From Macrostomum lignano (taxonomy: Eukaryota): 64,000 nucleotides of DNA. The DNA is taken from positions 1-64,000 of the forward strand of contig NIVC01001154.1 of NCBI GenBank assembly GCA_002269645.1. The letters run 5' to 3'. Below, piece by piece: positions 326 through 15,690 of the stretch; position 1 is the first letter of the stretch, and the number at the start of each line of letters is the position of its first letter. A program made the translations under genes and the position numbers. The notes beneath the pieces are model-generated. The model was not told where the DNA came from. It searched no databases and was given only the letters and a program-made list of their open reading frames with translations.

Positions 326-334
326 TTGCTTATA
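326..334 (-). promoter_or_regulatory. TATAAGCAA motif (candidate viral TATA box) 46 nt upstream of ATG 280; overlaps penton stop codon
   Basis: Identical 9-mer at 326-334, 1368-1376 and 2527-2535, each just upstream of a minus-strand viral ORF. Confidence 0.45.
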
Positions 335-1325
335 AATTAGTCCGACCTATGTTTAAAATGCAGTACGACAACAACGTGTGCTCCGGATCAAAATTAAACG
401 GTTTTCCGCGCTGGTCCGATAGTCGAATCGAAATCTCGTGAATTTGTTGTCGATTTGTTTTCAAGTAGTAGGGTGTTTGCAATGCACTGCTATCGCGTAT
501 AAGTTCTCCGTTTTTCTTTTGTTGGAGTTCCACAACTCGAAGCAACGGTACTGATGTACTTCCCACTGCTTGATACTCGATTATATCTGTGTAACAGTAC
601 ATGTAAACCGTTTTACTAGGCATCGGAGAAGGTAGCACAGCATCCAAGTAGGTTTTGTTAATGCGCCAAACACGATTTCTCAACCAATATTGGTGTACTT
701 TGATGTACACTTCTCCTTCCGTTTTTCGAAGATAGTCTCCATGCGAAACAAGTCGTATAGCTTCACCAGGCGATAGAACACAATAAAAAACATAATAGTT
801 CTCAGGTACTAGCGCTAGAGTATTGTCGAGACTTTTTATCAAATCCAAGTATGAACCATCCGGTGGTTGTACACTACCAGCGGCAGGTTTTGATAATTTT
901 TCCGAGACAAGTCCAGAAAGTTTCTTCCAAGAGTCAAATTTGAAAGCGTCCATAAATGTAACTGGTAGTTCTAATCCAATAGTTTTTTCGCCTGAATTTC
1001 GTAAAAGCCAGGCAAATTTTTCATCTGTACCAGACGGTTGCCAGGAAACGTAAGCATCCAAGTCTGCCTCTGCCCAAACACGACCCCAATAGTTTTTCTT
1101 TAATCGTATTATTGAGTCAATGTCCGCAAAATATGGAACTTCAAATCGACGCTCACGATGAGCATTTGGCGTCGTAATTGCTCCATGGCACAGTAATTCA
1201 ACTAGTGCAACCTCGAAGAATCCGTTCAATAAATTTATTGGTTCAGTTAGTCGCACTCGAAATTCATTAGGCGAGTTGGTTTCGTAACTGATATCGTTTG
1301 ACGGCAAAAAAACGTAAAAACTCAT
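330..1325 (-). CDS. Minor capsid protein (penton), Polinton/adintovirus type; intact, ~331 aa
   Basis: N-terminal MSFYVFLPSN...NEFRVRLTEPINL...FEVALVEL and C-terminal YCYTDIIEYQAVGSTSVPLLRVV...YYLKTNRQQIHEISIRLSDQRG match the characteristic Maverick penton pattern; ATG at 1325. Confidence 0.85.
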   Translation of the reverse strand: MSFYVFLPSNDISYETNSPNEFRVRLTEPINLLNGFFEVALVELLCHGAITTPNAHRERRFEVPYFADIDSIIRLKKNYWGRVWAEADLDAYVSWQPSGTDEKFAWLLRNSGEKTIGLELPVTFMDAFKFDSWKKLSGLVSEKLSKPAAGSVQPPDGSYLDLIKSLDNTLALVPENYYVFYCVLSPGEAIRLVSHGDYLRKTEGEVYIKVHQYWLRNRVWRINKTYLDAVLPSPMPSKTVYMYCYTDIIEYQAVGSTSVPLLRVVELQQKKNGELIRDSSALQTPYYLKTNRQQIHEISIRLSDQRGKPFNFDPEHTLLSYCILNIGRTNL

Positions 1326-1367: not shown

Positions 1368-1376
1368 TTGCTTATA
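1368..1376 (-). promoter_or_regulatory. TATAAGCAA motif 43 nt upstream of penton ATG
   Basis: Same 9-mer, in the short gap between ATPase stop (1383) and penton start (1325). Confidence 0.45.
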
Positions 1377-1382
1377 ATAATA

Positions 1383-2070
1383 TTACACAAACTTTGCATC
1401 ACATTCACGAGTATAGACAACTTGTTCATCACCAGAAAATATTCCTGTTCTCAATCGTAAAAAATCTGGTGTCACTTGCCGCAGGTCAATGAATAAATAT
1501 GAAAAAGGTTTGTTATTTGTTGCGTCTTCATACACATTCACTAGAAACCTACTATTACGCGATACATTTGTCGACCGAGATGTTCAACTGTGGTTCGATC
1601 GCGCACACTACGAGTTAGACAAATATAACTAGCTGATAAACTTCGCATGCGTGCTTCTGGATCAGACTTGTTAAAAAGACCTTGACAAAGGTACAGACAA
1701 GTCAAAGGGATATGATGCGCATGCTTTGTAAACATACTAGTAAATTCTGGCAACTTAGCAATCTCGCTTTGCAAGTCGTCAACAACAACCAAATCGTGTG
1801 GTAAAAACGATTAATCATCTGTGGTGTGAATTCGGGTACAAAAACAATAGGGTCAAGACCGCTTTTTTGCCAGCATGTTCTAATTCGTTGTTGATCGTCT
1901 GGTTTCAAACTTGATCCATGGCACCAAACAAGACGGCACGGTTTTTTATCAAATAATTCTTTTCGTTCAGTCAACAAACGCAACGTCCATTCAGTTTTAC
2001 CCGAGTTTGAAGGTCCAGCAATAATAAATGTAGAATCGTGAGCTAGTTGCATATTGTATGGCTGCTGCAT
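1383..2070 (-). pseudogene. A32/FtsK-like DNA packaging ATPase, two apparent 1-nt deletions
   Basis: Walker A FIIAGPSNSGKT, Walker B VVVDDLQ, then Q-x-LF-N-K and GRQMY(P)RNSRFLVNVYEDAT...FSYLFIDL...LRLRTGIF. Frame is restored by adding one T near 1805 and one C near 1560 (minus-strand sense). Confidence 0.9.
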
Positions 2071-2072
2071 TT

Positions 2073-2514
2073 TCAAGCACCAAAGCGTTGCTTAACTTGC
2101 ATAACCTTGGTAACCAACTTCGCAGCTAGTTTTTCTTTCCAACCAGTAGACGGATCGTGGGCAATCTCTCGTGCACGATTCTAATAGCTTATCAGCTTTT
2201 AACCTCTCTTGCACGTCAGAATTTTTATCATAGGCCACGTCGTGAAGCATGCACAAATTGTCAAGCCGATTAATTCCTCGTTGTCCTTTTGCTAGCCTAG
2301 CTTGCAGTTGCGTACCTGGACCACAAAACTGATATCCGCCGGGTAAATGTGCTTCAAATGGTAAATGATTAATTAACCAATTTACGACACCATAACCTTG
2401 TTGCTTTTTATTAATCTTTCTAATAGATTTCTTCTTTTTACGAATGCTCTTCTTTTTCTTTTTAAAACCTCGATCTTTCGCTGGAGACATTTTTACAACA
2501 TATATTTTAGGCAT
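2073..2514 (-). pseudogene. Parvovirus-like phospholipase A2 (PLA2X) with Lys-rich N-terminus; one frameshift near 2180
   Basis: HLPGGYQFCGPGT Ca-binding loop and GINRLDNLCMLHDVAY catalytic HD motif; shifted frame continues RAREIAHDPSTGWKEKLAAKLVTKVMQVKQRFGA* ending at TGA 2073. Confidence 0.85.
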
Positions 2515-2526
2515 AAATTTTTAAAA

Positions 2527-2535
2527 TTGCTTATA
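2527..2535 (-). promoter_or_regulatory. TATAAGCAA motif upstream of PLA2 ORF (37 nt from ATG 2490, 13 nt from ATG 2514)
   Basis: Third identical copy of the 9-mer. Confidence 0.4.
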
Positions 2536-2605: not shown

Positions 2606-3084
2606 TTATTGGCCAGTGCTGCCAAAGCCGCCAAAGCCGCGCCGCTTGGTCGGCGGCTCAATCATCCGAATCGAATTGTCTGCTTCAGTCACATAGACTG
2701 AAGCAAGCACGGCCTGCTCCAGAACCAGTTGTGCAATACTGAGCCCGGCATAGTACTCAAAGTCTTCCGGACTGTAATTAAACAAGACTATACAGATTTC
2801 ACCAGTATAGTCGGGGTCGATTACGCCACCGCCAACAAATAAGCTGTGCAGAGCCATGCTGGAACGTCCCTATCCTGCCATAGGTACCAGGCGGTAAGCG
2901 AATTTTGAGTCCGGTTCGCACACTCCGGGACTCGTAGGCCGGAATGGTACCATCGACGCCGCGCAAAGATCATACCCGATCGACCCGACAGTTTTTCGGG
3001 TCGGAATCGTTGCCGAATCGTATAGACGTTCAACTAAAAGCTTACGATCAGTTAGTTGTTGTTGCTGCTGCTGCTCGGATTCAT
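2606..3084 (-). pseudogene. dut: Trimeric dUTPase, split by frameshifts
   Basis: All five motifs recoverable across frames: GSIGYDL; GTYGRI-x-GRSSMA; GVIDPDYTGEI; GLSIAQLV; RGFGGFGSTG. Start position approximate. Confidence 0.9.
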
Positions 3085-3413
3085 GTCGATTCTTGTAGCT
3101 GAAAGTTTAAAAAAAAGTTTTTTTTCTTGAAACATGAACGATAGCACTACATTTACGTCTACTACAAACACAAGCTTAGTCTTGAGAATCTAACTATAAA
3201 AAATATACTTTTTCAAATAATTAAACACAAAAAAGTGCTAAAATTATAATTTAAACGAATGCCGGTATCATTTATTTATTGTAAATAATGATCAATGAAA
3301 AAATTAATGATGGGTTACAGTCTTCTATAGCATGCTATTACTTTGTACAACAAAAGAGATCAGAGCATATTGTTAATTAATTAGCCAAGTGCCAGTGTCC
3401 AAAGGGTAGCGAA

Positions 3414-4451
3414 TTAATTGAACTTGTCCAGGATCGCTTCGTATCGAAGAAGCTTAGTGCAAGTTTTCTTTGTTGCATCAAAAAAAACTTTCTGTTTTCG
3501 AGAACGAATGGACTGTATGCGCGAAAACACAAGTTGTCGCTTGTGTAAGACTCTTAAATAGTCTTGATGCTTTAAACTGCTCTGTGCGGCTTTAGAAGCA
3601 GTACTGCTCCAGCTTTGCGACCGATTGAGACTGGAACTTTAAACGATTGCTGCTTAACCAGACCGGACCGGACTGGACCGGACCGGACTGGACCGGACTC
3701 CCCGCGCCCGCCGCCGCCGCGCCGCCGCCGCACCACCACCACCACCACCGCCGCCACCACCACCACTGCCGCCGCCCGCCCCCACACCACCGTGGGACGT
3801 ATTTGTTGACAGTGTGCTTGCATGGCTTTTGCGATAAACGCAGAGCATCAAGTCTAGCTGCTCGATTGCTCTATATTGCCAATTACTACCTCGAGATTGA
3901 AAATTGTCAATTTTTATTAACAACTGATTAATAACGCGTGCGAACCAGTCATTGTAGGCCTCGGGAGATAACAGCATGTCACTGTTTGTAATCGTCTCAT
4001 CAAATGATATTGTCGCAATGTTGGTATTAAAATAGACCGAAATGATCTCTTCGCTGCTCGAGCCATCGTTGTCGTCTGCTGCTGTTTTCGGTCGAAATAG
4101 TGTCACTTTCAAGTGAAAGCAGACTCTTATTAATAAACTGGGTGAGCCAATTTTTTCCAATATTTTAAATATTGGTTCTCTTAAAGACGCAATCAACTCG
4201 CCAGGAAGTAACTCGCCAGAGCTGTTGCCTTGTTGTTCAAGAGTGGGAGTAAATTCGACAAAATTTACCCGACCACGATGAGCTGACTCGCGCAAAGCGA
4301 TGGACCACCCATCTGGTGGGTTTTCGATCAGGTTTTGCAGCGATCCGGTCAGTAATCGTTGCGGTGAAAAACAAGCACCATGCGAGTGAGCATGCAGCTC
4401 GGCTTGATTACTGAACTTTTTTCTGCAGATTTGGCATTGTGCACGCGGCAT
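3414..4451 (-). pseudogene. Zn-finger plus GSxW-motif protein resembling the N-terminal region of Polinton protein-primed PolB, with a microsatellite-derived Gly-rich insert; no polymerase core
   Basis: CQICRKKFSNQAELHAH (C2H2-like) and IDNFQSRGSNWQYRAIEQLDLMLCVY; downstream of the (CCG/CCA/CCGGA)n tract, shifted frames give SFKVPVSIGRKAGAV and TTCVFAH. 3' end approximate. Confidence 0.5.
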
Positions 4452-4674
4452 TGTGTGCACCTAGCTCGACAACGAGCGTATCGAGCATAATATTAATAGA
4501 TGATCCGGTTTGTCATTTGCGGCTGTAAGAAAAATGATGATTTGGTTAGTTATAGGTATAGCTGACACGTTTACTATTAGAGAAAACAATTGGTAAATAA
4601 ATAAAAAAAGACAAAATGTTTGTAAAAGAATGCATCGCAACTGCGATTTGACAGCAATTGTTTACTTGTTAAGT

Positions 4675-5268
4675 TTAGTTATTAACAGAGATTAAAAAAT
4701 CCTTGACATGGTTAAGAATATTATTCAATTCATGAGTGTTTTGAACGCCCATAATAACAAACTTTTTCGAAAAAAATATGTTACAAAAAAGCCTTGGTTT
4801 TGATGCTGATCTAACAGAAACTGCTTGTGGGAAATTTTCTGCATCGTATCCAACCAGATAATTCGAATAGTAGCCTGCATATCTTTTTAGACTAGAGAAA
4901 CCGAATTTTGGCCAAAGATGACCAATAAAGCCGACATAGGTACTGCTCTGAATTTTTACTGAATCAAAATCTACACAATTAATAGTGTCGTTGATAAATC
5001 GTAAAACTGAGACTATCTGAGAATTTGATTTACAGCCATATATAGTTAGTTTTCCTGCTGGATAAAGTTGGATTTTAGCATTTGAATAAATTGTCTTTAG
5101 CATTGTTGGTCGGCTTAGGAATAGTTTGCAAAACCGGTTTCTGGTCTGTAGCTTCTGTTTGGTCTGCTTTAAATCAAATTTTCAAACGGGTGCAGCTTCA
5201 GACTCGCAGTAACTATTAATAGGACAAGTCGCTAAAACGGAAAATAAATAATAAGAAAAGTTAAACAT
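4675..5268 (-). CDS. TBP: TATA-binding protein (TBP)-like, two-repeat saddle; one in-frame TGA at 5182-5184
   Basis: KFDLKQ ~ KLDLKT; AKIQLYPAGKLTIYGCKS ~ TALIFSSGKMVCTGAKS; FDSVKIQS ~ FLDFKIQN; YDAENFPQAVSVRSASKPRLFCNIFFSKKFVIMGVQ ~ [34 protein letters not shown] (comparison with the human TBP core from memory). ATG 5268 is in frame with ORF 4675..5103. Confidence 0.8.
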
Positions 5269-5440
5269 GACTATACTATCGTAAATTCTAATATTAAATT
5301 ACAAAACCTGGTTAGCGTACAAGGAGTAGCAAAAATGTTTTGAGCTTTTCCCTAAAAAATAATATTTCCCTAGCCAAAAATTTGATAAATATAGTGGAAT
5401 AAGTTAGTTAAAACTTGGATAAAATTAGTCAAAAATTTTG

Positions 5441-6271
5441 TTACTCATCATCAGAGCTGCTGTACGAGTCGTCCGATGAAGACACGCTAGCTGTAGTAGC
5501 GTCCGCAGCAGCACGCTTTAAAAATGCTGTCTCCTTGGACGCTACCCTGGTTCCAGAGGCAGGTGTACTCACCAAGATCTTTGCTGGTGGAGCCTCCACC
5601 CAGTCTGTGCCATCTGCACCAGCTTCGGCAGAATTGTTTTGCTGTTTTGCACCGCTGCGTTTTCGAACTTGCTTTTTAGGCGGCGGTTCAATAGAGGCTG
5701 GCGCTGCATTCGATGTAGTCGACTTCTTCGATACGGTGGTGGTAGACCGACGCTTTGCAGGTGACTTGGCAGGTGTCACCTGGCTTGAATTCTGCAGGCT
5801 TTGTTCATTTGCTTCTTCTTGCTCACAGGTAGATGTTGGGGACGGACTCCTGCTTCTAATTGCTGACTTGGTCGCGGGTAGGTGTGCAAGCACTCCCTTG
5901 AACATGTCGAGGCGCTGCAACATGTTGTCGGAAGATTCTATGAGTGTCAGAGAGCGCACAGCGAATGTAATGCGCCAGACGAGGCAGCCTTTTGGACAAT
6001 ACAAGCTCGTTGCTTGCACTGTCATTTGGTAGGTACCGCTGACACCTTTGAAATCGGAAATGGACACCTCCTTCCCGTGTGGATGATCGTTGCTGATCCT
6101 GATTGTGGCACAAGGGTAAGCAGGCTTTATAGCCAGCCATTGTTGAGGCACAAACTCGAGGACGTCGTTAGCATGCTGATGAGCTGGTTTTGTTAGTCGT
6201 GCCAAGGGTCGAGCATCTTGAATCTCGTTCAACTTGACCGATAGACCTTTTTCGACTTGACTGCAAAACAT
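5441..6271 (-). CDS. Hypothetical viral protein, 276 aa: globular N-terminus, S/T/K-rich disordered C-terminus with NLS-like PPKKQVRKR and acidic tail
   Basis: Long ATG-initiated ORF, co-oriented and tightly packed within the element; no family recognised with confidence. Confidence 0.65.
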   Translation of the reverse strand: MFCSQVEKGLSVKLNEIQDARPLARLTKPAHQHANDVLEFVPQQWLAIKPAYPCATIRISNDHPHGKEVSISDFKGVSGTYQMTVQATSLYCPKGCLVWRITFAVRSLTLIESSDNMLQRLDMFKGVLAHLPATKSAIRSRSPSPTSTCEQEEANEQSLQNSSQVTPAKSPAKRRSTTTVSKKSTTSNAAPASIEPPPKKQVRKRSGAKQQNNSAEAGADGTDWVEAPPAKILVSTPASGTRVASKETAFLKRAAADATTASVSSSDDSYSSSDDE

Positions 6272-6327
6272 TATATAAATTATGAATATAGTTTCCTAAA
6301 ATTAATTGTATAAATTTAATATGGTGC

Positions 6328-6812
6328 TCACCGGAGAGAGTGGAAGAGTTCCTTATCGCAGCTGTCTGGATGAAATTGGACACTTACTGCGTCGCGAGAG
6401 TCGTGTCTGCAAGACGGATGATCGAGCTCTGGCCTTTCTGCGATTCCACGAAAAAGCTCCATTGGAGCCTTGGTTTGCAATATAATTGGGTACCATTTTG
6501 TACACTCGATTGATGGTTTCCACGCAATAGATCGAAACTGGCAGGACGAACCAGTCGTGGTTGTAGACTGCTCTCCAACGTAAAAAATCGGACTCGAGTC
6601 GGAGCGTACAATTGACTCCGTCTTGATGCAAGCTGCCATGTCTTACAAGCAATTGAATATAGTATTTCTTTTGCTGTAATGATTGAGCTCATGAAAAATT
6701 GACCATTTCGGGTCTTGTATTTATAGCAAGCTTTGCATGCTGTTTGTGAACTAGTAAACAAATTTAATTGTTGCGTGCTGATTAAGACATTGTTGCGTGC
6801 CAAAGGTGGCAT
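6328..6812 (-). CDS. Hypothetical viral ORF(s); true reading frame ambiguous, probably frameshifted
   Basis: Three overlapping minus-strand ORFs (6328-6639, 6353-6652, 6384-6812) occupy a gene-sized slot in the co-oriented cluster. Confidence 0.35.
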
Positions 6813-7329: not shown

Positions 7330-8040
7330 CACAAATGCTGTTTGGACTAAGCTAAATTACTGTGTTGAGACAGTTAAGCTGGACCACGGCTAAATCACTA
7401 TTGATACGGTTAATTGCTACTAGACCCATGGCTAAATCACTGTACGTTGAGACGGTTAAGCTGGACCACGACTAAATCGCTGTACGTTGAGACGGTGGTT
7501 AAGCTGGACCATGGTTATAAAACTGGACGGGTGGTTAAGCTGGACGACTACAGCTAAAATTACTGTTGAGTCAGTTATGCTAGACCACAGCAGCCAAATC
7601 ACAGTTGAGGTAAAGCTGACCATAGCTAATTCTCACTGTTGAGACGGGTGCTGCTGCTTGGCTCACAGCTAAATAACTGGACAGTTAAGCTAATCGGACT
7701 ACAGCTAAATCCCTGTTGAGACAGTTGCCTGGACCACAGCTAAAATCACTGTTGAGGCAGTTAAGTCTGGACAACAGCTAAAATTACTGTTGAGACAGTT
7801 AAGCCTTGACTATAGCTAAATCATCGTTGAGGTAGTTAAGCCTGGACTATAGCTAAATCACTGTTGATGCAGTTTTAAGCTAGACCACAGCTAAATCATA
7901 CTGCTGAGGCAAAAAAGCCGGACCACGGCTAAAAACTGTTGAGGCAAAAGCTGGACCACAGCTAAATCATACTGTTGAGGCAAAAGCTGGACCACAGCTA
8001 AATCATACTGTTGAGGCAAAAGCCAGACCATGGCTAAAGA
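7330..8040. repeat. Degenerate tandem array, ~35-40 bp unit (GTTAAGCTGGACCACAGCTAAATCACTGTTGAGACA-like)
   Basis: Roughly 18 diverged copies readable directly. Confidence 0.85.
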
Positions 8041-8288: not shown

Positions 8289-8840
8289 TTAAGATAGGTC
8301 CCAATATTCAAATACTTGAGTTGTATTACAGGTCTTTGGTAATTCTACTTGGTAGAAGCCTGTGCTCATTTGAGAGACTTTTACAGACTTGATGTCCTTC
8401 TGTACAATAATTGGCGAGTTTAGCAGCGGTTGAACTTGGGTAGAAATAGCAATTGATGATGATGGTGTTTCAGTTGCTGTCGTTGGTTTGGTACTTGTAG
8501 GCTTACTGCAAGTTTGCTTTGTTGGGTCATTGTAGCTGGTTGGTGATGGTGGTGGTGGTGCATACTGCAGTTGGTCAGTTGGTCGTGGGTTCGATTGCTG
8601 CCTAATTGACTGAATAACATCAGTTCTTGTGTAAATGCGATCTAGCTCAGTTGTCTGTCTCTCGACATGAATCGAGGTTACTCTGGCGAGAGATGTAGAA
8701 TATGATGCTCTTGCAGCAGAATTGGATGTGGTGGTGTCGTGGCAAATGCGTTTGCACTGATCTGGAGGTGGCCGCGTGAAGAAACCATTCTTGAATGCTA
8801 TAATAATGGATAAGATGAGGGAAATTTGGTATAGGTGCAT
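8289..8840 (-). CDS. Hypothetical 183-aa protein with hydrophobic N-terminus (signal/anchor) and T/S/P-rich body
   Basis: ATG-initiated intronless ORF, LYQISLILSIIIAF then mucin-like region; membership of the viral element is uncertain. Confidence 0.4.
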   Translation of the reverse strand: MHLYQISLILSIIIAFKNGFFTRPPPDQCKRICHDTTTSNSAARASYSTSLARVTSIHVERQTTELDRIYTRTDVIQSIRQQSNPRPTDQLQYAPPPPSPTSYNDPTKQTCSKPTSTKPTTATETPSSSIAISTQVQPLLNSPIIVQKDIKSVKVSQMSTGFYQVELPKTCNTTQVFEYWDLS

Positions 8841-8857
8841 GTATACAATGTATATAG

Positions 8858-9085
8858 AAACTGAACTAGCAGAGAATCAGTCTAAACAGAAACCGAACTA
8901 GCAGACAATCAATCTAGAAATTCTGAACTAGCAGAGTATTAGTCTAAACAGAAACCGAACTAGCAGAAAATCAATCTAGAGACTGAACAAACAGAGGATC
9001 GGTCTAAACAGAAACCGAACTAACAATCAATCTAGAAACTAAACTATAGCGAATAGTCAATCTAAAAAAGAAAACTGAACTAGAG
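8858..9085. repeat. Degenerate array, ~30-bp halves forming a ~62-bp dimer (AAACAGAAACCGAACTAGCAGA..AATCAATCTAG)
   Basis: Recurrent GAACTAGCAGA and TCTAAACAGAAACCGAACTA words. Confidence 0.75.
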
Positions 9086-9894
9086 TAGGTGATTATCTTA
9101 CCTTGTTTAACATAGCGCTCGGCCAATTCCTGCTGACGTGATCGCTTCATTTCACTTAAGATGTAAGTATAGTTGAACAAGTAGTATAATGTAAACTTGG
9201 TTTAAGTTATTTAATATTTTCTGTGTCAGTGTGTTCGTATATATATATAGTATAAAGAAGAAGCATGTTGACGCAGTTGTTGACATAGTATCTGTAAACC
9301 ATCTGCTCAAGTTGGTGCAAAAATTCTATAGGCACTCAAGAATAGATCATTTACTATCTTTCTTCAAAAGGGTGATAATATTCACAAGTTTTCAATATTT
9401 CAAAAACACTTGAAATGTGTGAATAGCTTTGGAGTAAATTTGTCTTGAATGGAATCCTTTGAAGTGTGTTTGTGTCACCATTGCTAGAATCGGTTACTTG
9501 TATTTTGGACAGGTGGATATGCAATTCGTCTGAATAATCACGTTGCGTAAAAGATATTTAGCGTGCACATGGAATTTCAGACTGCGTGCACATGAAATTT
9601 CGGACTCTGCCATTTTTTTGGGCCTGTACTTACTATGTATTTCGCCATAAGGAAATCGGCTTTGTGTCAAAAAAACGTATACTACTCCCACCAACCACCT
9701 CATCTTCAACCCGGATCACTGCCCTGATTGCGCAACAGGCTTCCCATGTCTCCGCGATTTCAATACCCTTTTCACATTTCCTCCCATCTGCAGCGCGCGG
9801 GCATGCGATGTTCAACTCTCTCTTCTGAATAGAGAAGCTGAAACTGGATCAAATATTTTCAGCATTCCTGATGGCTGAGCTGACTCAAAACCTC

Positions 9895-12800
9895 ATCAAT
9901 CCCAAGCTTCACAATCCCGAAGCCTCACAATCCCGAAGCTTCACAACCCCCAAGCTTCACAACCCCCATGCTTCACAACCCCCAAGCTTCACAACCCCCA
10001 AGCTTCACAACCCCCAAGCTTCACAACCCCCAAGCTTCACAACCCCAAGCTTCACTACCCCCAAGCTTCACAACCCCCAAGCTTCACAACCCCAAGCTTC
10101 ACAACCCCCAAGCTTCACAACCCCCAAGCTTCACAACCCCGAAGCTTCACAACATCCAAGCTTCACAACCCCGAAGCTTCACAATCCCCAAGCTTCACAA
10201 CCCCGAAGCTTCATAACCCCCAAGCTTCACAGCCCCCAAGCTTCACAACCCCCAAGCTTCACAATATCCAAGCTTCACAACATCCAAGCTTCACAACCCC
10301 CAAGCTTCACAACCCCCAAGCTTCACAACCCCCAAGCTTCACAACCCCCAAGCTTCACAACCCCGAAGCTTCACAACATCCAAGCTTCACAACCCCGAAG
10401 CTTCACAATCCCCAAGCTTCACAACCCCGAAGCTTCATAACCCCCAAGCTTCACAGCCCCCAAGCTTCACAACCCCCAAGCTTCACAATATCCAAGCTTC
10501 ACAACATCCAAGCTTCACAACCCCCAAGCTTCACAACCCCCAAGCTTCACAACCCCCAAGCTTCACAACCCCCAAGCTTCACAACCCCCAAGCTTCACTA
10601 CCCCCAAGCTTCACAACCCCCAAGCTTCACAACCCCAAGCTTCACAACCCCCAAGCTTCACAACCCCCAAGCTTCACAACCCCGAAGCTTCACAACATCC
10701 AAGCTTCACAACCCCGAAGCTTCACAATCCCCAAGCTTCACAACCCCGAAGCTTCATAACCCCCAAGCTTCACAGCCCCCAAGCTTCACAACCCCCAAGC
10801 TTCACAATATCCAAGCTTCACAACATCCAAGCTTCACAACCCCCAAGCTTCACAACCCCCAAGCTTCACAACCCCCAAGCTTCACAACCCCCAAGCTTCA
10901 CAACCCCGAAGCTTCACAACATCCAAGCTTCACAACCCCGAAGCTTCACAATCCCCAAGCTTCACAACCCCGAAGCTTCATAACCCCCAAGCTTCACAGC
11001 CCCCAAGCTTCACAACCCCCAAGCTTCACAATATCCAAGCTTCACAACATCCAAGCTTCACAACCCCCAAGCTTCACAACCCCCAAGCTTCACAACCCCC
11101 AAGCTTCACAACCCCCAAGCTTCACAACCCCCAAGCTTCACAACCCCCAAGCTTCACAACCCCAAGCTTCATAACCCCCAAGCTTCACAACCCCCAAGCT
11201 TCACAACCCCGAAGCTTCACAACATCCAAGCTTCACAACCCCGAAGCTTCACAACATCCAAGCTTCACAATCCCTAAGCTTCACAATCCCCAAGCTTCAC
11301 AACCCCCAAGCTTCACAACCCCCAAGCTTCACAACCCCCAAGCTTCACAACCCCCAAGCTTCACTACCCCAAGCTTCACAACCCCCAAGCTTCACAACCC
11401 CAAGCTTCACAACCCCCAAGCTTCACAACCCCCAAGCTTCACAACCCCGAAGCTTCACAACATCCAAGCTTCACAACCCCGAAGCTTCACAATCCCCAAG
11501 CTTCACAACCCCGAAGCTTCATAACCCCCAAGCTTCACAGCCCCCAAGCTTCACAACCCCAAGCTTCACAATATCCAAGCTTCACAACATCCAAGCTTCA
11601 CAACCCCCAAGCTTCACAACCCCCAAGCTTCACAACCCCCAAGCTTCACAACCCCCAAGCTTCACAACCCCGAAGCTTCACAACATCCAAGCTTCACAAC
11701 CCCGAAGCTTCACAATCCCCAAGCTTCACAACCCCGAAGCTTCATAACCCCCAAGCTTCACAGCCCCCAAGCTTCACAACCCCCAAGCTTCACAATATCC
11801 AAGCTTCACAACATCCAAGCTTCACAACCCCCAAGCTTCACAACCCCCAAGCTTCACAACCCCCAAGCTTCACAACCCCCAAGCTTCACAACCCCCAAGC
11901 TTCACTACCCCCAAGCTTCACAACCCCCAAGCTTCACAACCCCAAGCTTCACAACCCCCAAGCTTCACAACCCCAAGCTTCACAACCCCGAAGCTTCACA
12001 ACATCCAAGCTTCACAACCCCGAAGCTTCACAATCCCCAAGCTTCACAACCCCGAAGCTTCATAACCCCCAAGCTTCACAGCCCCCAAGCTTCACAACCC
12101 CCAAGCTTCACAATATCCAAGCTTCACAACATCCAAGCTTCACAACCCCCAAGCTTCACAACCCCCAAGCTTCACAACCCCAAGCTTCACAACCCCCAAG
12201 CTTCACAACCCCGAAGCTTCACAACATCCAAGCTTCACAACCCCGAAGCTTCACAATCCCCAAGCTTCACAACCCCGAAGCTTCATAACCCCCAAGCTTC
12301 ACAGCCCCCAAGCTTCACAACCCCCAAGCTTCACAATATCCAAGCTTCACAACATCCAAGCTTCACAACCCCCAAGCTTCACAACCCCCAAGCTTCACAA
12401 CCCCAAGCTTCACAACCCCCAAGCTTCACAACCCCCAAGCTTCACAACCCCCAAGCTTCACAACCCCAAGCTTCATAACCCCCAAGCTTCACAACCCCCA
12501 AGCTTCACAACCCCGAAGCTTCACAACATCCAAGCTTCACAACCCCGAAGCTTCACAACATCCAAGCTTCACAATCCCTAAGCTTCACAATCCCCAAGCT
12601 TCACAACCCCCAAGCTTCACAACCCCCAAGCTTCACAACCCCCAAGCTTCACAACCCCCAAGCTTCACAACCCCCAAGCTTCACAACCCCAAGCTTCACA
12701 ACCCCCAAGCTTCACAATCCCCAAGCTTCACAACCCCCAAGCTTCACAACCCCCAAGCTTCACAACCCCCAAGCTTCACAACCCCCAAGCTTCACAACCC

Positions 12801-13460
12801 CAAGCTTCACAACCCCCAAGCTTCACAACCCCCAAGCTTCACAATCCCCAAGCTTCACAACCCCCAAGCTTCACAACCCCCAAGCTTCACAACCCCCAAG
12901 CTTCACAATCCCCAAGCTTCACAACCCCCAAGCTTCACAACCCCCAAGCTTCACAACCCCCAAGCTTCACAACCCCCAAGCTTCACAACCCCCAAGCTTC
13001 ACAATCCCCAAGCTTCACTACCCCCAAGCTTCACAACCCCCAAGCTTCACAACCCCCAAGCTTCACAACCCCCAAGCTTCACAACCCCCAAGCTTCACAA
13101 CCCCCAAGCTTCACAACCCCCAAGCTTCACAACCCCCAAGCTTCACAACCCCCAAGCTTCACAACCCCCAAGCTTCACAACCCCCAAGCTTCACAACCCC
13201 CAAGCTTCACAACCCCCAAGCTTCACAACCCCCAAGCTTCACAACCCCCAAGCTTCACAACCCCAAGCTTCACAATCCCCAAGCTTCACAACCCCCAAGC
13301 TTCACAACCCCCAAGCTTCACAACCCCCAAGCTTCACAACCCCCAAGCTTCACAACCCCCAAGCTTCACAACCCCCAAGTTTCACAACCCCCAAGCTTCA
13401 CAACCCCAAGCTTCACAACCCCCAAGCTTCACAACCCCCAAGCTTCACAATTTCGAAGCT
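9895..13460. repeat. 16-bp minisatellite (CCCCCAAGCTTCACAA, HindIII site) with higher-order structure
   Basis: Continuous ~3.5 kb array; CATA variants recur at ~224 and ~541 bp spacing. Confidence 0.98.
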
Positions 13461-14249
13461 TCCCAACTTTAAATTTAAACTTGAAATCCAGATGAACCGA
13501 CTAAATGATTGGAGGACCCATACAGGTCTATTGGCTGTGGAATTCCGGAAGTTCTGACTAAAATAAAAGCAAGAATGACACTCTGAACTCAGCCCAAAGC
13601 GGCTTCTGAGTCTTGACATGCATTTTTATTGCTCCATTTTGCTGGTTCGTGGTTTATATAAATAATCTATAGGTCGTATTTTTGTGCTAATTTAACTACT
13701 AAAAAGTCACCTGTGAGCAGTATGAATTCCGGAATATGTTTCCAAAAATTTCGCCTACTTTTATTGATCTTTTTTATCATAGTAATAATCTGAAAAAAAG
13801 TGAATACCCAACAACTAGAAAGCAAAATAATCACCAAAAAAGGCAACAAAAAACCGAATTGATAAAGATCAAACTCATTGAATTTGAAACTCATGAAGTA
13901 TTCATATTGATGATGGTGTATTTATGATATAACTGCGCTACAAGAAGGTTTTGGGCAAATGGAGTCCATCATAAAATTGTTGCATATGATATGATTGTAA
14001 GCAATAATTAGTTAACAAAGCAAAACGTGTAACAATGGTCAAAGATTTACATGCAAAGTATAATTTTAAAAATATTTGCGTCACGAAATCTTCATTTTAG
14101 CTACTTAAACGACAAGCCATGTAAGCAATTCTTTTTGGCAGTGACTTGAGTGAGGAATAACTGATAAATATGAGCTATTTTGCATTTCAAATCCATCAAT
14201 TTTGATTACGCATCAAGGATAGCTTAGGTTTACTAGACTGCAAAAGTGC

Positions 14250-15690
14250 ACTCTCACACTGTACACAGTCACTCTGACTAGTCACTCTCACACTGTACAC
14301 AGTCACTCCGACTAAGCACTCTCACACTGTAAACAGTCACTCTGACTAGTCACTCTCAAACTGTAAACAGTCACTCCGACTAAGCACTCTCACACTGTAA
14401 ACAGTCACTCTGACTAGTCACTCTCACACTGTAAACAGTCACTCTGACTAGTCACTCTCACACTGTACACAGTCACTCCGACTAAGCACTCTCACACTGT
14501 AAACAGTCACTCTGACTAGTCACTCTCACACTGTAAACAGTCACTCCGACTAAGCACTCTCACACTGTAAACAGTCACTCTGACTAGTCACTCTCACACT
14601 GTAAACAGTCACTCTGACTAGTCACTCTCACACTGTAAACAGTCACTCTGACTAAGCACTCTCACACTGTAAACAGTCACTCTGACTAGTCACTCTCAAA
14701 CTGTAAACAGTCACTCCGACTAAGCACTCTCACACTGTAAACAGTCACTCCGACTAAGCATTCTCACACTGTACACAGTCACTCTGACTAAGCACTCTCA
14801 CACTGAAAACAGTCACTCTGACTAAGCACTCTCACACTGTACAGTCACTCTGACTAAGCACTCTCACACTGTAAATAGTTACTCTGACTAGTCACTCTCA
14901 CACTGTAAACAGTCACTCTGACTAGTCACTCTCACACTGTAAACAGTCACTCTGACTAAGCACTCTCACACTGTAAACAGTCACTCTGACTAGTCACTCT
15001 CATACTGTAAACAGTCACTCTGACTAGTCACTCTCACACTGTAAACAGTCACTCTGACTAGTCACTCTCATACTGTACACAGTCACTCTGACTAGTCACT
15101 CTCACACTGTAAACAGTCACTCTGACTAAGCACTCTCACACTGTAAACAGTCACTCTGACTAGTCACTCTCACACTGTAAACAGTCACTCTGACTAAGCA
15201 CTCTCACACTGTAAACAGTCACTCTGACTAGTCACTCTCACACTGTAAACAGTCACTCTGACTAAGCACTCTCACACTGTACACAGTCACTCTGACTAAG
15301 CACTCTCACACTGAAAACAGTCACTCTGACTAAGCACTCTCACACTGTACAGTCACTCTGACTAAGCACTCTCACACTGTAAATAGTTACTCTGACTAGT
15401 CACTCTCACACTGTAAACAGTCACTCTGACTAGTCACTCTCACACTGTAAACAGTCACTCTGACTAAGCACTCTCACACTGTAAACAGTCACTCTGACTA
15501 AGCACTCTCACACTGTAAATAGTCACTCTGACTAAGCATTCTCACACTGAAAACAGTCACTCCGACTAAGCACTCTCACCCTGTACACAGTCACTCTGAC
15601 TAAGCACTCTCACACTGTACAAGTCACTCTGACTAAGCACTCTCACACTGTACAAGTCACTCTGACTAAGCACTCTCACAGTCACTCTCA
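14250..15690. repeat. 34-bp minisatellite (CACTCTCACACTGTAAACAGTCACTCTGACTAGT / ...GACTAAG)
   Basis: Direct reading; ends about 15 bp from the bHLH stop codon. Confidence 0.97.

Follow-up and report, generated by a model that had tools for sequence, protein, structure and literature searches.

The closest described systems are viral. KSHV ORF24 and EBV BcRF1 are TBP-fold factors with an added N-terminal region that serve late promoters with host Pol II (PMC7498053 and 10.1101/2025.08.25.672222). ORF24 itself, according to the latter source, contacts the Pol II CTD directly and depends on five further viral proteins, and models of it leave no room for TFIIB. The protein considered here is proposed likewise to serve late promoters and may work as the herpesvirus TBP mimics do, the likeness being one of analogy only, but unlike ORF24 it keeps its TFIIB stirrup and appears to have no such partners in its 15-kb element. 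Nucleocytoviricota TBPs are two-lobed with a diverged N-terminal lobe, as here, and mostly pair with a viral TFIIB, their adapter residues having diverged (PMC7221094), whereas here the stirrup is kept and no multi-copy TFIIB was found in the genome (PF00382, 15 matches on 7 contigs, a search that could miss a very diverged TFIIB). As to the carrier, Polintons, Mavericks and adintoviruses (PMC8502044) have in common with the present element inverted repeats, a chromodomain integrase, a protease, capsid-like genes, an ATPase and PLA2, and, in its sister families, a protein-primed polymerase. A preliminary description of this DNA did not count TBP among the described Maverick genes; a TBP label stands in the legend to Fig. 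5 of PMC8502044 and also in its preprint. That is the one occurrence of TBP in the accessible text, there is none in the text of the supplement, and splicing, the TBP clade and the promoter box treated below are not described there. Novelty is bounded by that label, and no description of clade, splice or box was found in the literature searched, figures, Repbase and subscription papers lying outside the search.

The window, by which we mean the whole stretch of 64,000 nucleotides analysed, comes from Macrostomum lignano (contig NIVC01001154.1, positions 1 to 64,000 of the forward strand). Our main reading, to which we give a probability of roughly 0.55, is that a Polinton within it would encode, by way of alternative splicing, a TBP for late genes that works with the TFIIB and Pol II of the host.

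The element is about 15 kb long and begins with a terminal inverted repeat of 104 bp starting AGTAGT (9583..9686, minus strand), 96% identical to the repeat at the other end in L045, the two ends compared coming from two different copies; loose ends fall at 9686 in 3 runs. L045 is the far half of a sibling and carries an integrase (PF00665) with a chromodomain, a basic protein, a 440-aa capsid-like ORF, a protease and the 104-bp repeat. The 440-aa ORF is conserved and stands at the place expected for the capsid gene, with no significant Pfam or PDB sequence match; the protease matches the S273R protease at E 0.008, and a relative matches Peptidase_C5 at E 4e-4. Of the features by which a Polinton is known, an inverted repeat starting AG, integrase, protein-primed polymerase, A32-type ATPase and adenovirus-like protease are present in this copy or its relatives. 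The Polinton/adintovirus-like carrier that had been proposed is borne out; the TBP recurs in its sibling copies and in another five families. That the TBP belongs to the element is hardly in doubt. Beyond the element end lie satellite arrays of 16-bp and 34-bp units (9901-13450 and 14248-15680) and a piece of a host bHLH gene (PF00010, 16564-17319).

Inward from the repeat, the first gene (8289..9150, minus strand) has two exons and no Pfam match, the joint over its intron (8798-9101) being present in 4 of 4 runs; tandem repeats of 36-40 bp (7351..8038) follow, then the gene upstream of TBP, and TBP itself. Next is a zinc finger with the N-terminal remnant of a protein-primed polymerase gene (3654..4451, minus strand). 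The polymerase domain is absent in this copy and the main family retains only the front of the gene; the PF03175 polymerase is intact in L031-L034 and L039, downstream of TBP and a kinase, and the five sister families have the order upstream gene, TBP, kinase, polymerase. An acceptor-like site at 4520-4535, ahead of the zinc finger/polymerase gene, suggests that this gene too is spliced, and in L031-L034, L039 and L065 the polymerase has a zinc finger at its N-terminus as well as an endonuclease VII domain (PF02945). On 8 sister-family contigs a capsid match is found 12-14 kb downstream in the same orientation. The remaining genes of the window copy, all on the minus strand, are a dUTPase (2606..3106, PF00692, in two frames in this copy), a basic protein with a PLA2-like domain (2092..2514, PF08398, E 1e-8), a packaging ATPase (1383..2070, in several frames in this copy, its pieces matching the ATPase of L060, which in turn matches Pox_A32 at E 6e-6) and a penton-like, minor capsid gene (330..1325, with relatives in capsid-bearing contigs at E 3e-10 and no Pfam match), the name penton-like being taken from its N-terminal motif. 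With the dUTPase, PLA2, ATPase and penton-like genes TBP is co-oriented, as first described.

Both TBP halves and the motifs originally quoted are indeed found at 4675-5268 on the minus strand, but not as the single ORF that had been drawn there: a TGA stands at codon 29 and the stop-to-stop frame is 168 aa. Nor does the ATG at 5268 serve as the start, being substituted in L026-L028 and, in the 26 of 30 near-identical loci that read open from the splice acceptor onward, out of the TBP frame. The TBP-like exon is 4675..5231 (minus strand), with 185 codons in open sibling copies and a frameshift near 5180 in this one. A search of the 764 Mb assembly gave 83 TBP matches, 29 of them with 98-100% identity across most of their length, together with several further TBP families at about 40-47% identity; six Polinton TBP families from this genome, that of the window included, were compared, their identity being 40-46%. 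From a fixed point the exon is open for at least 180 codons in 26 of the 30 near-identical loci, three being broken (the window copy, L025 and L029) and one lacking the fixed point. The frameshift near 5180 is probably an assembly error, because the X1 contig spanning 4901-5289 has a single gap there and because other indels of this copy are contradicted by all covering runs. Purifying selection acts on the exon: dN/dS is about 0.15 in two comparisons (0.14 for L003/L027, 0.15 for L031/L032) and 0.47 in a third (L031/L044), more distant pairs being saturated. L026-L028 form a 97%-identical subfamily with some 3 kb extra between the TBP and capsid genes, compatible with a retained polymerase.

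How is the exon translated? The gene had been called intronless, a view that has to be given up, since a conserved splice acceptor immediately precedes the TBP core and in none of the families does the core have its own conserved ATG. The acceptor, a pyrimidine tract plus YAG in phase 0 (5232..5256, minus strand), abuts the first TBP codon and is at the same position in six of six families; in all of them homology starts after the YAG at an Arg codon, and in the public relatives P0001 and P0002 the site is recognisable as a Q|R or a Q|K junction. An in-frame ATG ahead of the acceptor, within the tract region, occurs in one of eight loci examined. That the exon is spliced is very likely. Its predicted partner lies in the tail of the upstream gene (5567..5573, minus strand), where a conserved phase-0 donor reads G|GTGAGT across the K-x-L|V-S codons; K, L, V and S are 4 of the 13 invariant columns in the alignment of that gene, the rest of the tail being poorly conserved. 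The V-S codons read GTRAG in 6/6 families as against 16 of 64 V-S pairs in long frames overall (those six included), a count to be read with the proviso that the Ser codon class changes slowly, so that the families are not fully independent. Joining donor to acceptor maintains the frame, and the conserved pair defines a predicted alternative intron (5232..5572, minus strand) that would lead from the upstream gene into the TBP exon.

The upstream gene comprises exon 1 (6332..6639), a GT-AG intron 1 (6261..6331) whose joint is present in 3 of 4 runs and whose donor has the same place and phase in L031, L044, L033 and L034, and exon 2 (5441..6260), which holds a putative ssDNA-binding domain, a Lys/Pro/Ser linker and an acidic tail, all on the minus strand. 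Its product resembles DUF2738-type viral proteins (Atlas language-model features, score 0.93, the family occurring on 10% of cluster members), which we take to be an ssDNA-binding OB fold; the SSB identity is putative, resting on this one Atlas lead, and the gene has no Pfam and no PDB match. Homology to metagenomic PC4-like upstream genes, an Atlas lead scoring only 0.80, was looked for with hhalign and hmmsearch, and none was found. Apparent PC4-like/TBP fusions in L068 and L070, considered as fusion support, were set aside, for they look like frameshifts in an overlap because the TBP N-terminus is lost. In L057, L058, L060, L065, L073 and L077 the upstream gene overlaps TBP: the TBP ATG lies where the conserved core of that gene ends, and the tail of that gene is overprinted on the TBP frame.

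The element's two other GT-AG introns (6261-6331 and 8798-9101) are spliced in the RNA-type runs, intron 1 serving as a positive control for the splicing of element genes. Against a spliced fusion, the 5573/5231 joint is not among the 5 joints listed from the four runs, which are RNA-type by guess, have no record as RNA and are kept as contigs, a form that drops rare products; run X7 has no cover over 4951-5280, and among the 19 loose ends listed, with 4 beyond the listing, none falls at 5231. Contigs that cross the element end reflect DNA or read-through, so run depth is uninformative on expression. A word search for a fused SSB-TBP protein of 355-2000 aa, a weak test, gave none in 7999 candidates. 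With the conserved in-phase donor and acceptor in mind, we consider it probable that TBP is made as a cis-spliced SSB-TBP fusion. Could the start codon come instead from a host spliced leader, joined at the acceptor and bringing its terminal AUG, with a free-standing TBP of 186 aa as product? A phase-0 acceptor at the very start of the fold, the missing conserved ATG and an exon that is a complete core would all suit this, a leader-supplied AUG is possible in a flatworm host (PMC12582326, PMC8629364), and, according to the former, reported flatworm leaders all end in ATG and acceptors are often common to cis- and trans-splicing. However, an in-phase cis donor is conserved upstream in all six families, and no leader-like loose end at 5231 is among the 19 listed. 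Such a leader is an unlikely source of the start, and one that can coexist with cis-splicing.

The TBP homology first noticed is confirmed by profile and by structure. The 168-aa frame matches PF00352 at E 2e-7 (31 bits, the cut-off being 22.9) in two stretches and matches PDB TBPs by sequence; across six family representatives PF00352 scores above its cut-off in three, just below in two and not at all in one. An AlphaFold model built from 55 sequences (pLDDT 97, pTM 0.86) is a two-repeat saddle with TBP as its best Foldseek match (TM 0.75, rmsd 3.2 to human TBP, listed ranks 1-44 all being TBP entries). In VIA the best TBP has Z 16.2 with rmsd 2.6 over 168 aligned residues, five TBP chains have Z 14-16 and the first non-TBP fold has Z 8.2. 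An earlier, shallow model from 7 sequences had TBP-like lobes and a poor whole-TBP match (TM about 0.45, rmsd 7). Strand 1 of the model starts at exon residue 2, and the exon alone encodes a complete TBP core. From the modelling we have practically no reservation that the protein has a true TBP fold. Viral TBP-like proteins in BFVD are matched at E 6e-8 and weaker, with identity of only 9-16%. With cellular TBP and TRF2 it has in common the full saddle, the C-terminal Phe pair and the stirrup Glu, whereas identity is about 20%, the first Phe and both Asn are lost, and it stands on its own branch.

The asymmetry of the repeats remarked on at the outset holds: the C-terminal Phe pair is kept, the second N-terminal position is Tyr and the first Phe is absent. 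The third and fourth Phe are present in 10/10 of the window clade and in 116 and 115 of 117 other relatives, and the second stirrup Glu in 10/10 and 115/117; these, with the glycines, are what window clade and relatives keep. The first stirrup position is Asp in 7 and Asn in 3 of 10 in the window clade, and in many relatives a Y-x-G-R-P-x-M-L motif replaces the first stirrup. Phe 1 is lost in essentially all members of the wide Polinton clade; the change of Phe 2 to Tyr and the replacement of both central Asn and both Thr DNA contacts are confined to the window clade, which accordingly lacks the full canonical set of four intercalating Phe and two central Asn and retains, to judge by its residues, an acidic C-terminal stirrup on the TFIIB side. 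Helix 2 has 1-3 basic residues in four of five families compared, versus 6 in host TBP. In cellular TBP the Glu pair contacts TFIIB and the basic patch serves Mot1, TAF1 and TFIIA, while other viral TBPs are reported to have lost both features and to be accompanied by a viral TFIIB (PMC7221094); for the window protein, contact with host TFIIB is predicted from conserved residues alone. Specific DNA binding by the window clade may be weak or different because both central Asn and both Thr contacts are lost. These losses, with the stirrup retained, would equally suit a decoy that sequesters host TFIIB, or a replication factor that binds single-stranded or bent DNA at the termini; in several lineages TBP neighbours ssDNA-binding genes, and Giardia TBP, without key Phe, prefers ssDNA (PMC12209930). 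Such a role seems improbable, however, given that three aromatic intercalating positions are invariant and that all TBP lineages examined but one have their own TATA-like word at a TATA-like distance from gene starts. That the window TBP acts as a late-promoter activator is what the odds favour.

The upstream gene of the window has a canonical TATA box, TATAAATA, at 6718..6725 (minus strand), about 85 nt 5' of its ATG, and TATAAAAG or TATATAAG occupies the corresponding place in four other loci. Elsewhere in the element a different word, TATAAGCA, occurs four times in sense and never in antisense orientation against 0.27 expected, each time 21-98 nt 5' of an ATG: ahead of PLA2 (2528..2535), of the penton-like gene (1369..1376) and of the ORF starting at 280 (327..334), all on the minus strand, and of a 240-aa gene, that is, at 4 of 12 gene starts, the dUTPase and TBP having been omitted for want of a usable start. 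It is the best 8-mer of those 12 starts, with 2 of 500 shuffles as good; a 7-letter box is not significant in the window family (50/500 shuffles), which counts against the claim. Near matches stand ahead of the ATPase (TTAAGCA, about 25 nt before the ATG) and basic genes, and the integrase, major capsid and protease genes have no box within 120 nt. The survey was extended over TBP-bearing elements. Relatives with the same TBP type have ATGCAAA in 12 of 42 upstream regions (0/200 shuffles), mostly 30-50 nt before the ATG, and seven related contigs, near-duplicates removed, have TAYGCAAA (0/200 shuffles); two other TBP types have CTTAAGAA and TATAAGA words, and 14 regions of L073, L077 and L079 gave no enriched word. 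TATAAGCA differs from TATAAAAG in its 3' half, its 5' half being unchanged. In TBP-DNA structures it is the C-terminal repeat that lies over the 5' half, and with that orientation the unchanged and changed halves of the box fit the unchanged C-terminal and rebuilt N-terminal repeats. The redirection of host Pol II to viral promoters, proposed at the outset, gains indirect support from this element-specific TATA variant.

The box may of course be read by host factors, whether a variant-tolerant host TBP or a POU protein, with the viral TBP acting elsewhere. ATGCAAA is what we take to be the core of the host POU octamer, and TATAAG is near the consensus TATA; on the other hand the ACGCAAA and TAAGCA variants break the octamer core, and the word varies with TBP lineage (TATAAGCA, TAYGCAAA, CTTAAGAA, TATAAGA), so that we regard host reading as a distinctly long shot.

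The relatives are widespread. A profile search gave 145 TBP-related matches, 4 of them close, and a wider profile 76 proteins of the Y-x-G-R-P-x-M-L type; among 68 metagenome loci 24 carry that motif, 19 of them with Polinton genes, as against 14 of the 44 without it, and relatives occur in marine Polinton contigs. The window clade and its motif-bearing relatives form one branch apart from cellular TBP, with support of 100/97 (LG+G4) and 97/95 (mixture model) on 44 rows and an unstarred 87 in a 145-row quick tree, trees in which branches are long and the eukaryote or archaea labels of database rows were read from their sequences. The capsid proteins of these elements are separate from those of the PC4-TBP type in an unrooted tree of 14 rows, and grouping with the genome's second Polinton TBP type is rejected weakly (AU p 0.018). 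By sequence, then, the window TBP belongs to a wide Polinton clade in which the first Phe is lost and the TFIIB-binding stirrup kept. A captured host TBP or TRF retrocopy, a functionless passenger, might be suggested by the broken window copy and two other broken near-identical loci and by the host TBP core itself lying on one exon, but it is refuted by AU tests (p 5e-7 for a grouping with host TBP, 0.001 for one with the host TRF2-like gene), by purifying selection, by the same position in six families and by the marine relatives. A word search of 90%-cluster proteins for the TBP family gave none in 1770 candidates, IMG/VR scans with TBP and capsid queries gave no confirmed locus, and Rfam gave 0 matches.

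Other arrangements also occur among these elements. L122-L124 represent another Polinton TBP of this genome, distinct and multi-copy, which starts at its own ATG, has Trp in place of the first Phe and gives over 100 matches; it is convergent with the polymerase, both lying within about 3 kb on 7 contigs, and CTTAAGAA is ahead of 8 of 15 starts, that of the TBP gene itself included. In one family (L035 at 3940-5346, L037, L039) a deoxynucleoside kinase (PF01712, E 6e-24) follows on from the TBP exon with no break in the frame; in L031 and L032 the kinase overlaps the TBP tail in a different frame, and the window family is without it. In L087, L097, L108, L089 and L080, which are of another Polinton type, the gene immediately 5' of TBP is a tandem PC4 coactivator (E 6e-21 to 7e-25); the TBP there is more canonical, and TATAAGA is enriched ahead of the genes. 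The host TBP and TRF2-like cores (L046, L052) are each single-exon, with three copies each.

On our preferred reading the events might run as follows. An early unit, whose canonical TATA box host TBP could read, would yield two products of one gene. With the second splice omitted there would be a putative ssDNA-binding protein with an acidic tail; splicing from 5572 to 5232 would give the same N-terminal domain, a basic linker and the complete TBP core, about 517 aa in all. The C-terminal repeat, with its two Phe and acidic stirrup, would grip the 5' TA step and bind TFIIB, the N-terminal repeat having been rebuilt, with the first Phe lost, Tyr at the second and a thinned basic patch. Such a TBP would bind TATAAGCA where it precedes the packaging and structural genes, bring in TFIIB and Pol II from the host and evade control by Mot1/TAF1, and, more speculatively, its ssDNA-binding fusion could couple late transcription to replicating genomes. 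It is a tentative extension, with the odds against it, that animal Polintons of one large group possess an early-to-late transcription switch of their own, in which a lineage-specific, rebuilt TBP has co-diverged with a variant TATA box and is here spliced to a replication SSB, so that capsid genes come on only with replicating genomes.

These observations bear on how Polinton capsid genes are regulated and on whether an integrated copy goes through a true early/late programme. That several particle-building genes stand behind a matching altered TATA box suggests how such elements may switch on their capsid genes, and, with a single protein as the switch and an 8-bp box that is easily recognised, the early/late model is open to RNA data and a binding assay. 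Given their conserved introns, ORF calling misses Polinton TBP genes or models them wrongly. If TBP and box differ naturally from lineage to lineage, the pairs would provide altered-specificity TBPs for studies of core promoter recognition.
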